A DNA stretch of 6,152 nucleotides from a virus: IMG/VR virus record IMGVR_UViG_3300045988_012363, positions 1 to 6,152 of that record; one strand, given 5' to 3'. Positions 2,700-6,152 of this stretch are shown here, in pieces. The notes beneath the pieces are model-generated. The model was given only the letters and a program-made list of their open reading frames with translations. It was not told the DNA's origin and searched no databases. Positions within the stretch are counted from its first letter, which is position 1. The number at the start of each line of letters is the position of its first letter. A program made the translations under genes and the position numbers.

Positions 2700-2842
2700 G
2701 TGTTTTTTGCTTTTTATTTACGCTTTAGCGTTAAATTTTAGTACTTTTCAACTTTTCCACTACCTCTACTACTACTCCTACAACAAGTTATATATTATAC
2801 AGCGCTTGTGAGCTTGCGAACAATAGCGCTAGCGCTCTATAG

Positions 2843-2885
2843 CGCGCGTGCGCGCGTGCGCGTTTCGCGCGCGTGCGCACGCGCG
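2843..2885. repeat. GC-rich inverted repeat forming a hairpin of alternating purine-pyrimidine sequence
   Basis: The sequence is cgcgcgtgcgcgcgtgcgcg-ttt-cgcgcgcgtgcgcacgcgcg. The stem has 20 paired positions (2843-2862 with 2866-2885): 18 Watson-Crick pairs and two G-T appositions (2854/2874 and 2857/2871). The loop is 3 nt. Both arms alternate purine and pyrimidine without interruption. Confidence 0.9.
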
Positions 2886-2988: not shown

Positions 2989-4008
2989 TTAGAGTGTCCC
3001 TTTCTTTTTCATCTGCTTCTTGATCACTCTCTCTTTTGTTTTACACTGTTCTGCAAAGTCTGTGTTTTCGTACTTTAGTCTGTTTTCTGCAATTGCTGCT
3101 GCTTGTCTGTTCTGTTTAATTTTCCACAACCTTTGTGGGTTTTCAGCTTCCATCATTTTTTCATAATAACGTGGAATTTGTGCGTGCTTGCCGTTTGTGC
3201 ATTGGATATATCCTTGCCGCCAGATCTCTGCTTTGTGCTCTTGATAATAGTGATCGCCTAAACCCGGTTTGAGGCTCATACATGCGAATGGTTTTGTTTG
3301 CCCTAGCTCGTAGTATGCGTTTGCTTTTTGACCGTCTATCTCATACATTTTTTTTGTGACGTATCCTGCAACATATCTATATGTTTCTGGCACTGCTTGC
3401 GCTATCTGTATTTGACCCATGCCCCATAGGTCTTCTAGCCATTTACTTGTAAAGTATCCGTTGTGTTGTATCTTGTATAGGTGTTCTAGATCTGTTGGTT
3501 GCCATCCATACAGTATCATGTGATAGTGCGGTCTTGCTGTCTGTTCTCCGTATTCTCCCGCTACAAAATAGCGTAATTTGCCCCCATAAGCCTTCCTGAG
3601 ACGTTTTAAGAATTTTTGAATGTCAGTATATAGCAACGTTTGGACGCTTTCAGGGCGCTTCTCTCCCGGTTTCCAGACGTATTGTACTTTTCGCATGATT
3701 TCGCCTGTGTTTATTATCATGCCCGGTACATGATCATCATCATAGGTTAATGTTATAAACCAAACTTCTTCTTTTGGATAATCTCGTGCTTCTAATTCTA
3801 TTCGTGTTGTCCAATCCTCCCTTTGTCTGATTCTACATCCGATACATTGTCCACATGGTATCAACATGACATTTTTTTTGTACATCAGGTCTTCATATTT
3901 TAGCTGTTTTCCCGCTAACTGAGAAAAGCGGGAGAGTGAGTACACCCTCCCGCTAATGTTTTTGTCGTTAGGGTTGTACAGCCTTATTAATGGCTTGTAA
4001 CAACTCAT
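2989..4008 (-). CDS. VP4: Rolling-circle replication initiation protein (VP4 / phiX174 A-like HUH endonuclease), 339 aa
   Basis: The three microvirus Rep motifs are present. They are FITLTY, the HUH motif PHYHMILYG (H-Y-H at 3520-3528), and the double-tyrosine motif YVAGYVTKK (Y212 at 3373-3375, Y216 at 3361-3363; compare phiX174 A YVAKYVNKK). There is also an N-terminal CGQCIGC cysteine cluster. Its ATG overlaps the VP2 stop as ATGA (4005-4008). Confidence 0.95.
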   Translation of the reverse strand: MSCYKPLIRLYNPNDKNISGRVYSLSRFSQLAGKQLKYEDLMYKKNVMLIPCGQCIGCRIRQREDWTTRIELEARDYPKEEVWFITLTYDDDHVPGMIINTGEIMRKVQYVWKPGEKRPESVQTLLYTDIQKFLKRLRKAYGGKLRYFVAGEYGEQTARPHYHMILYGWQPTDLEHLYKIQHNGYFTSKWLEDLWGMGQIQIAQAVPETYRYVAGYVTKKMYEIDGQKANAYYELGQTKPFACMSLKPGLGDHYYQEHKAEIWRQGYIQCTNGKHAQIPRYYEKMMEAENPQRLWKIKQNRQAAAIAENRLKYENTDFAEQCKTKERVIKKQMKKKGTL

Positions 4009-4880: not shown

Positions 4881-6152
4881 TTACAGTTTGTACAAGCCCG
4901 GTACACTGTATAGTGGCATCCGTCTTGTGGTTTTGTTTGCTACGCGGATAGCTCCGAAAAATTGCGGCTCATTCTGTATGACGAGTGTTCGCGCAATTTC
5001 GTTTTTGCCTTCTTCCATCCAGCCTTGCGATAGTGTTGGTGCGGTTGTATAATTGTCTGCGTAGTGCCAGAAATCCAACGTGCCTGTTGCGTTGCTTCGC
5101 ATGAGGCCGCTTACCCGGTTTGGTTTCATTCGGTAGTCCGCCCAGGCCTCCTGGTAGCCGAACGTTTCTTCGTCCGTTTCCGTGCCGGTCAACATGATTT
5201 CCTTTTTCTTTACGGGCTGTTCGCCTAGATTTGCAAACTGCGGTACATAGTAGTCCAGTCTGTCTTCTCGGCTCCAGAAACGTTCCAAGCCTTGCTGATA
5301 ACTGCGATTGTGTCGCACACAACAGACACCAATTACAAATCCATGCTCTTCAAAAGATTTGGTAAAAGAGCTTTCGTTTATCGGCGTCACTGACATTGCA
5401 CCAGTTTCGCCCAGCGGTGTATTATCGTTTTCCGCTGTCTGCACGATTTGGTTGATATTGATGTGATATCTGCCGCCGCCCAGGTATTCTGGAATCTGTA
5501 CTGTTTTGTCGCTGATAGTTACATTCCACAGTGCTTGTACCTGTTCACGGTATCGGCTGCCGCCTCTAGCTAGTGCCTCGTAGTACTGCTGTACTGCTAC
5601 GGCTTTTCTCAAGTCGTTGATGGTTGTTGCGGTTACTGTGCTGAGGTCTGCGCCTAGATATGCTGCGTCTATTTCTGTGAGGTCTTTTTCGTAGGCGATT
5701 GATTTACCATTCAGCTGTACTGGAAATTTTCCATTAGCTGATACCATTCCGTTCAGCACGTTTTTTGTTGAGCTTTGTCCGTTTTGACTGAATCCAAGTA
5801 CGTTTAGATTTACTTCGTTTTTATTTTCCGCAGCTCCGCTGTATGCCTTTACCTCTGCGTTTCCTGTCATTGGAATTGTCACTGCCGGCCCGCGCTGAGG
5901 ATACGGTAAGCAGCTGGTAAAATAGTCATGGAATTTGTTTACTGGTAAGCACCTTCCGCCTTTATATGCTATTTTCAGCACTTGATCGATGCTTTCGGTG
6001 CTTGAGTCTTCGTATGTTACGTCAGCATCATCCGTTTTAATTACTGCTGCATTATCTACGTTTTCATCCCTAAAAAATTCGTTCCAGATTTTTACATACG
6101 CTCTAATAGGCAGCGCGTTGACTTCGAATTTTCCTTTTACTTTTGTCGGCAC
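4881..6152 (-). CDS. VP1: Major capsid protein (VP1 / F-like), C-terminal part. Bases 6054-6152 duplicate bases 1-99.
   Basis: The 423-aa track ORF contains ALPIRAYVKIWNEFFRDENV, GGSRYREQVQALWNV, IPEYLGGG and FVIGVCCVRH, and ends in FFGAIRVANKTTRRMPLYSVPGL. These are all typical microvirus capsid blocks. The M at 6152 in the track is an internal GTG (Val), not the start. The full gene runs 501..1 plus 6053..4881, which is 1674 nt and 557 aa. Confidence 0.93.
   Translation of the reverse strand: MPTKVKGKFEVNALPIRAYVKIWNEFFRDENVDNAAVIKTDDADVTYEDSSTESIDQVLKIAYKGGRCLPVNKFHDYFTSCLPYPQRGPAVTIPMTGNAEVKAYSGAAENKNEVNLNVLGFSQNGQSSTKNVLNGMVSANGKFPVQLNGKSIAYEKDLTEIDAAYLGADLSTVTATTINDLRKAVAVQQYYEALARGGSRYREQVQALWNVTISDKTVQIPEYLGGGRYHININQIVQTAENDNTPLGETGAMSVTPINESSFTKSFEEHGFVIGVCCVRHNRSYQQGLERFWSREDRLDYYVPQFANLGEQPVKKKEIMLTGTETDEETFGYQEAWADYRMKPNRVSGLMRSNATGTLDFWHYADNYTTAPTLSQGWMEEGKNEIARTLVIQNEPQFFGAIRVANKTTRRMPLYSVPGLYKL
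6054..6152. repeat. 99-nt exact direct terminal repeat (identical to 1-99), the overlap signature of a circular contig
   Basis: A base-by-base comparison shows 1-99 and 6054-6152 are identical. The repeat lies inside the capsid reading frame and preserves the frame across the junction. Confidence 0.95.

Follow-up and report, generated by a model that had tools for sequence, protein, structure and literature searches.

What does an almost purely alternating GC hairpin do beside the replication gene of a small gut virus, and on which DNA strand does it act? The window (the whole stretch of 6,152 nt that was analysed, IMG/VR record IMGVR_UViG_3300045988_012363) has identical ends, positions 1–98 being equal to 6055–6152; it is a circular genome of ~6054 nt, and the end identity is the terminal redundancy of a circular assembly. 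Megablast matches were gut gokushoviruses of human and pig (76–90% identity). The genes identified with Pfam, encoding the VP4 replication initiator, an F-type capsid protein, a Chp2-type scaffold, ORF5 and a peptidase M15, all lie on the − strand, and the sole sizeable non-coding stretch (~2473–2988) contains the GC hairpin. The rolling-circle replication initiator, called VP4 in annotated relatives (2989–4008, − strand; Pfam REP_ORF2-G2P, 1.6e-17), has its gene on the other strand from the nick-type motif described below. A preliminary description of this DNA had proposed that the hairpin is a complementary-strand origin or, equally, a packaging or recombination signal.

Two consensus sigma-70-type promoters were found on the coding (−) strand at 2472–2444 and 2051–2024, upstream of small ORFs and the peptidase M15 gene. 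Their forms, TTGACA-17-TATAAT (12/12, with TG) and TTGACA-16-TAAAAT, are near-perfect for sigma-70/sigma-A and would be compatible with a Bacillota host; the promoter scan found no good promoter on the + strand. A search of 185,579 bacterial genomes for an exact match to the nick hairpin gave none, and no prophage from the window's own clade was found. Distant relatives (VP1 identity 39–46%) were prophages in contigs of Oscillibacter, Muriventricola and other Clostridia; the integrated gokushoviruses (L272, L281, L268, L271, L274 and L279) lay on large contigs that included Oscillibacter sp. PC13 and Muriventricola aceti. Judged from these distant prophages only, the host is probably a member of the Clostridia.

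Structure and composition of the GC hairpin

The sequence at 2842–2885 reads GCGCGCGTGCGCGCGTGCGCG-TTT-CGCGCGCGTGCGCACGCGCG. Folding placed the alternating-GC hairpin at 2843–2885 on the + strand, as an inverted repeat with a 20-bp stem (left arm 2843–2862, right arm 2866–2885) and a TTT loop (2863–2865). The stem has 18 Watson–Crick pairs, including an A-T pair at 2849/2879, and two G·T wobbles at 2854/2874 and 2857/2871, which reproduced the stem given in the preliminary description. When both strands were folded as DNA, as that description had advised, the energies were −31.0 kcal/mol (+) and −25.9 kcal/mol (−). The hairpin was the most stable 50-nt window genome-wide on both strands (−31.1 and −26.4), far below the genome background of −3.4 ± 2.8 and the runner-up at −14.5. 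The claim that its composition is unmatched in the window was also borne out: the alternation-plus-GC score was 77 compared with at most 57 elsewhere, and the 44-nt element contained 16 CpG where 2.26 were expected.

Dinucleotide-preserving shuffles of the 44-mer folded to −23.9 ± 2.5 (z = −2.9 for the + strand and −1.5 for the − strand). Since the shuffles stayed near −24, much of the stability is due to the alternating CG/TG composition. Taken alone, the window sequence is evidence of an unusual composition and not of a specific fold; the evidence for the register comes from relatives. No T-tract followed the hairpin on either strand and the terminator scan was empty at this position, in agreement with the earlier remark that it is not a canonical intrinsic terminator. 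An Rfam scan of the whole window gave no match in the region, its sole match being a sub-threshold chance match elsewhere. The hairpin had also been called Z-DNA-prone. The sequence potential is present, as two perfectly alternating purine–pyrimidine blocks of 21 and 20 nt, but Z-DNA is unnecessary to explain why the alternation persists, as the stem changes described below indicate.

Conservation and pairing in related genomes

The same place in 12 GenBank relatives held a two-part alternating CG/TG element of ~44 nt. IMG/VR was scanned with a conserved 15-mer from nearby and then searched via VP4, which together yielded 57 distinct variants from the window's clade; additional GC elements occurred in clades with only 38–55% VP4 identity. 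Since GenBank genomes of human and pig faecal origin and many IMG/VR contigs contain equivalent elements, the GC hairpin is not an assembly artefact. According to the preliminary description, relatives lacking a hairpin here would refute a complementary-strand origin. Among 97 distinct genomes with the flanking CTA box and the nick hairpin, ~87 carried a bipartite alternating-GC element between them, and ~10, from at least two lineages, had no such hairpin at this position or elsewhere in the genome. The latter included L097 and L100 (VP4 90% identical to that of the window), L098 (same clade) and the L169 group; in these genomes the conserved CTA box directly abutted the nick hairpin. The element is long-lived but dispensable, and its absence from ~10 of the 97 means that it is not the sole essential complementary-strand origin. 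The loop was not conserved among relatives (TTT, CTT, CTA and others), and no priming-related sequence was found within the GC hairpin itself. The hairpin sequence varied freely among genomes with nearly identical VP4, and its distance to the nick hairpin ranged from 16 to ~190 nt across variants.

Alternating GC can pair with itself in many registers, so information on pairing comes only from the interruptions by T and A. On the + strand, the 57 stems (mean 20.4 bp) contained 826 G-C, 97 A-T, 222 G·T and 15 A·C appositions. A stems-only null, in which bases were permuted within each arm and the purine/pyrimidine skeleton was kept, expected 34 A-T and 78 A·C. Of the 112 stem A residues, 97 faced T; the 15 A·C lay mostly at the outermost stem position, and the A-T pairs occupied differing stem positions in different lineages. 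The compensatory changes that the preliminary description had proposed to look for in relatives were strongly evident. When pairs were counted in 38 aligned variants, 99.7% of cells were paired on the + strand and 8 of the 18 pairs had changed on both sides, in 40 cells compared with 8.2 ± 4.9 after shuffling; none of 500 shuffles reached 40. Registers shifted by two columns kept 90–95% of the pairing and showed little or no covariation.

The pairing depended on the strand. G·T-type cells numbered 147 of 684, which leaves ~78% of cells able to pair on the coding (−) strand and turns ~21% into C·A. The + strand was the more stable in 56 of the 57 variants, and against a composition-matched null the mean z was −1.24 for the + strand and +0.06 for the − strand. 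Selection thus maintains the pairing on the window + strand, the one antisense to all the genes; such strand specificity is what a structure acting in single-stranded DNA would show. All stem changes were transitions, as would be predicted if stems evolve via G·T intermediates, and this accounts for the lasting alternation with no need of Z-DNA. Selection on pairing does not account for one feature, namely that in L004, L028, L079 and L122 the arms are perfect direct repeats of 22–23 nt, each arm being quasi-palindromic. Direct and inverted symmetry of the arms were inseparable by match scores (z 1.18 vs 1.21), since each arm is itself quasi-palindromic.

The nick-type hairpin and the packaged strand

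A 13-bp nick-type hairpin lies at 2945–2978 on the + strand (arms 2945–2957 and 2966–2978), directly after the VP4 stop and ~60 nt 3′ of the GC hairpin. Its arms are 100% complementary (z ~ −6) and its stems covary in relatives. The loop (2958–2965), TACTTGAT, holds ACTTGATA, which is identical to the phiX174 cleavage core, and the predicted nick site of Rep (VP4) is TACTTG^ATAG, between G2963 and A2964. The phiX174 record places the viral-strand origin at the A in CAACTTG/ATA, on the strand that is both viral and coding. The nick hairpin thus resembles the phiX174 gene A site CAACTTG^ATA in having the same core beside a homologous Rep gene; unlike the phiX174 origin, which lies inside the Rep gene, the motif here is in a hairpin loop, in non-coding DNA and antisense to all genes. 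Directly 3′ of the hairpin, the flank GGTGACACC (2979–2987, + strand) aligned with Chp2, SpV4 and other clades and was kept as (G)GTGAYA or TGACAC across gokushovirus clades. The cultured Chp2, SpV4 and phiMH2K carried the same type of element, with unrelated stems, a TACTTG(A/T)T loop and a GTGAYA-like 3′ flank. No experimentally mapped nick site for any gokushovirus was found in the literature searched. In the window's closest subclade only, TACTTGATAG occurs once more outside a hairpin, with ACTGAATAGACTGATAC after it, as a direct repeat at 2898–2907 on the + strand (to 2924 with the follow-on). In the prophages L272 and L268, the VP4-to-nick-hairpin block terminated at the nick hairpin; attP may lie between the nick hairpin and VP4 in these two.

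The element was on the coding strand in all three cultured gokushoviruses and antisense to the genes in the window and several gut clades. Among 217 microvirus-sized loci oriented by VP4, in counts biased by sampling, the motif hairpin was antisense in 135, sense in 29, on both strands in none and undetected under strict criteria in 53. In the antisense class were the window's clade and three or more further gut clades (5.3–6.1 kb); the sense class was mostly environmental genomes of 4–5 kb, together with the cultured phages. In the antisense clades, the nick-hairpin stems had 13 G·T and 1 A·C on the motif strand; the sense-type hairpins had 2 G·T and 3 A·C, too few for a wobble test.

Rolling-circle replication displaces the nicked strand, which is then packaged, and the textbook rule for Microviridae is that the packaged strand is the coding strand. 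With the nick motif on the non-coding strand and the nicked strand packaged, these gut lineages are predicted to package the non-coding strand. The GC elements agreed with this orientation: in 67 of 67 distinct elements, the T-rich, wobble-tolerant strand was the nick-motif strand, and 66 of the 67 lay 5′ of the nick hairpin. The coupling also held in the sense-oriented Clostridia prophage L274 and its relative L283, where the wobbles were on the coding strand; for sense-oriented genomes, this comparison covers one lineage.

The virion strand of ssDNA viruses is expected to show a strand-specific substitution bias (PMC9810213). At four-fold VP1 sites, the coding-strand ratio of C>T to G>A, after normalisation, was 0.48–0.76 in five antisense-motif clusters, 2.2–2.3 in two sense-motif clusters and 3.1 in a cluster whose orientation is unknown. 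Relative to the motif-bearing strand, each of the seven clusters of known orientation thus had normalised C>T above G>A, an asymmetry that agrees weakly with packaging of the motif strand. The G/C skews did not fit a simple deamination model. Base composition was treated as a weak marker of polarity: the four-fold A/T skew was −0.78 to −0.22 in antisense-motif genomes and ranged from −0.52 to +0.63 in sense-motif genomes, with phiMH2K, which we take to be positive-sense, as a counter-example at −0.26.

The preliminary description had regarded the hairpin as very stable in packaged or entering ssDNA. This reading fails if the − strand is packaged according to the textbook rule, as 21% of the pairs would become C·A, and it stands only if the + strand is packaged, which the other evidence supports. 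From the nick motif, the wobble-tolerant strand and the substitution asymmetry, we infer that the + strand is the packaged one. We therefore lean slightly towards the view that a large gut gokushovirus lineage, with probable Clostridia hosts, packages the strand complementary to its mRNAs and so would be negative-sense Microviridae. Held jointly with this view, and with the same slight preference, the non-coding region would be a compact modular origin that is read entirely on that strand.

Teaching and annotation treat Microviridae as positive-sense ssDNA phages, and the prediction runs contrary to this. It draws on three converging results: the antisense nick motif, two hairpins that tolerate wobbles only on that strand, and the substitution asymmetry. 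If true, it would change genome orientation and annotation, the reading of strand-specific virome data and the place where origin functions are sought. Gokushoviruses have no mapped origins; for them it would also supply a testable origin architecture, with the first candidate for a complementary-strand origin module. Should the predicted polarity prove wrong, the GC hairpin still stands as a clear example of structural selection on one strand of phage DNA. A 2012 survey considered even one complementary-strand gene in Microviridae "highly unusual" (PMC3394797), and the literature searched contained no description of a gokushovirus origin, an origin hairpin, this GC hairpin or negative polarity.

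Possible role of the GC hairpin and the elements around it

In clades down to 46% VP4 identity, the + strand has the same order from 5′ to 3′: repeats, CTA box, GC hairpin, inserts, nick hairpin, TGACAC and the end of VP4. The inserts before the nick hairpin are variable, and small hairpins beside the GC hairpin are optional. The box, CTACTACTACTCCTACAACAAGTTATATA with 4–5 CTA, lies at 2766–2794 on the + strand, 5′ of the GC hairpin, and is a candidate priming site. Across 99 distinct variants, its core was near-invariant (in the form CTACTACTAC..CTACAACAAGTTATATA across clades) and 91 of the 99 had 4–5 CTA. It reached clades at 46% VP4 identity, including genomes without a GC hairpin. Most Firmicute primases initiate at 5′-CTA (PMC5204125).

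We propose, with a probability of about 0.5, that the GC hairpin is an accessory module of the complementary-strand origin, similar to a plasmid single-strand origin (sso), on the nicked, displaced and packaged strand. The hairpin would fold in single-stranded DNA of + polarity, the same strand as the predicted Rep nick site. As it lies ~80 nt 5′ of the nick, it would be among the last DNA made single-stranded in each round, and it would also be present in the entering virion DNA. A duplex island of such stability may withstand coating by single-strand binding protein and so mark a place, at or close to the CTA box, from which the priming machinery of the host begins the second strand. Candidate machineries are primase acting at the adjacent CTA-rich box, or a PriA-type or RNA-polymerase-type system of the Clostridia host. 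In genomes without the GC hairpin, the nick hairpin abutting the box could substitute for it. The priming role is our inference. The complementary-strand origin suggested in the preliminary description thus gains from the compensatory and strand-specific pairing, and its stronger form, a sole essential origin, is lost with the ~10 of 97 genomes that lack the hairpin.

The closest analogy is to the sso of Firmicute plasmids, which acts only on the displaced strand, is orientation-specific and flexible in position, and is required only to make lagging-strand synthesis efficient (PMC5703833). The GC hairpin likewise is non-coding and orientation-specific, has extensive structure only on the displaced strand and lies upstream of the nick (66 of 67 elements, at 16–190 nt). 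It is also modular, variably present and dispensable for replication as such. Whereas a plasmid sso is an imperfect structure of ~160 nt, the GC hairpin is a 43-nt stem of pure alternating GC, in a phage. Of the conserved ssoA elements, RSB and CS-6 (TAGCGT in a terminal loop), the comparison covered CS-6; such a loop was absent from the GC hairpin, and loops containing TAGCG were found only in the neighbouring small hairpins.

Phage origins offer further comparisons. The complementary-strand origin of phage G4 consists of primase-recognised hairpins with CTG on their 3′ side. The GC hairpin would resemble it as a stable hairpin on what would be the virion strand, beside the primase trinucleotide of the presumed host group (CTA, Firmicutes). 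It differs from G4 in that the CTA box is 5′ of the hairpin, in being a single hairpin with small modules and in having no sequence similarity. Like the PriA (n′) site of phiX174, it is an intergenic hairpin on the inferred virion strand that would nucleate complementary-strand synthesis (PMC9865509). Unlike that site, which is far from the viral-strand origin, the GC hairpin lies within ~100 nt of it, and the two have no sequence resemblance. In other microvirus clades, hairpins have been proposed as possible complementary-strand origins, without assignment (PMC9865509).

Several other explanations were weighed against the evidence on pairing and position. The hairpin could act on the packaged or displaced single strand without priming, as a packaging or condensation signal or as a pause or termination enhancer for re-cleavage by Rep. 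The strand specificity and the place just 5′ of the nick would fit such a role equally well, and dispensability suits an enhancer; the loose distance to the nick hairpin argues against a termination device, and Microviridae are not known to have a packaging signal of this type. We consider this explanation unlikely. A double-stranded element, either a Z-DNA or cruciform tract that tunes origin supercoiling or direct-repeat iterons bound by Rep or a host protein, would explain why each arm strictly alternates purine and pyrimidine, why some lineages have perfect direct-repeat arms and why, like the iterons of other rolling-circle replicons, the element adjoins the nick hairpin. It predicts equal numbers of G·T and A·C, however, and 222 and 15 were observed. 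The T/A interruptions covary in an antiparallel register, the sequence is free to vary at near-identical VP4 and is absent from genomes with 90%-identical VP4, and the evolution of stems through G·T intermediates, by transitions only, can explain the alternation. A duplex role is thus rather unlikely. It is improbable, too, that the hairpin has no function and is a quasi-palindrome maintaining itself via intrastrand template switching, with G·T produced by C-to-T deamination. Its dispensability, the perfect repeats and palindromes in several lineages and a composition like that of an expanded simple repeat are all in keeping with such an origin. Yet it has kept one position across clades of 38–100% VP4 identity, and its 15-fold excess of G·T over A·C far exceeds the 1.3–2-fold mutational asymmetry at four-fold sites. 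Even this explanation requires the + strand as the single-stranded form.

Two further explanations concern RNA and recombination. The location downstream of the last gene of the transcription unit, and the fact that G·U pairs are normal in RNA, would allow the hairpin to terminate or stabilise the VP4 transcript, or to be a fold within an antisense RNA. In the mRNA sense, however, the wobbles are C·A mismatches, and there was no U-tract on either strand, no good + strand promoter and no Rfam match, which makes an RNA-level element very improbable. For a recombination or integration site, whether Xer/dif-like or a folded ssDNA attachment site of the CTX-phage type, the related gokushoviruses that are prophages in Clostridia speak in favour, and GTGCGCA is similar to part of a XerC arm. 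Such a site is nonetheless the least probable of these explanations: prophage L274 carries an intact GC hairpin in its interior rather than at a junction, there is no AT-rich spacer or XerD-type arm, and no prophage of the window's own clade was found. The recombination signal offered as an alternative in the preliminary description is disfavoured on these grounds. Hairpin attachment sites in ssDNA are known in other phages, according to work cited in PMC3091885.

Apart from the proposed priming module, the non-coding region contains repeats and smaller hairpins. An array of TTCAACA / TTTTCCACA repeats, resembling DnaA boxes, lies at 2587–2761 on the + strand, 5′ of the CTA box. Exact TTCAACA occurred seven times, all on the + strand, compared with 1.28 expected. 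Relatives had 4–12 copies of the repeat on the motif-array strand and 0–1 on the other, and in sister clades the array contained exact TTATCCACA. The relaxed DnaA-box pattern TTWTNCACA was not enriched genome-wide (16 vs 15 expected). A small hairpin, AGCGC-TTGTGAGCTTGCGAACAATA-GCGCT, occupies 2801–2830 on the + strand, between the CTA box and the GC hairpin, and was also present in relatives. In 12 variants of it, the stems (AGCGC, GGCGC, GGCAC or CCCC) covaried and the loop was kept or was TTGAAGCGTAGCGAATA. Two other small hairpins, GGCGC-TTTA-GCGCC (2513–2526, + strand) and ACGC-TTTA-GCGT (2721–2732, + strand), lie within a repeated unit, TTTT.A..GCGCTTTAGCG.
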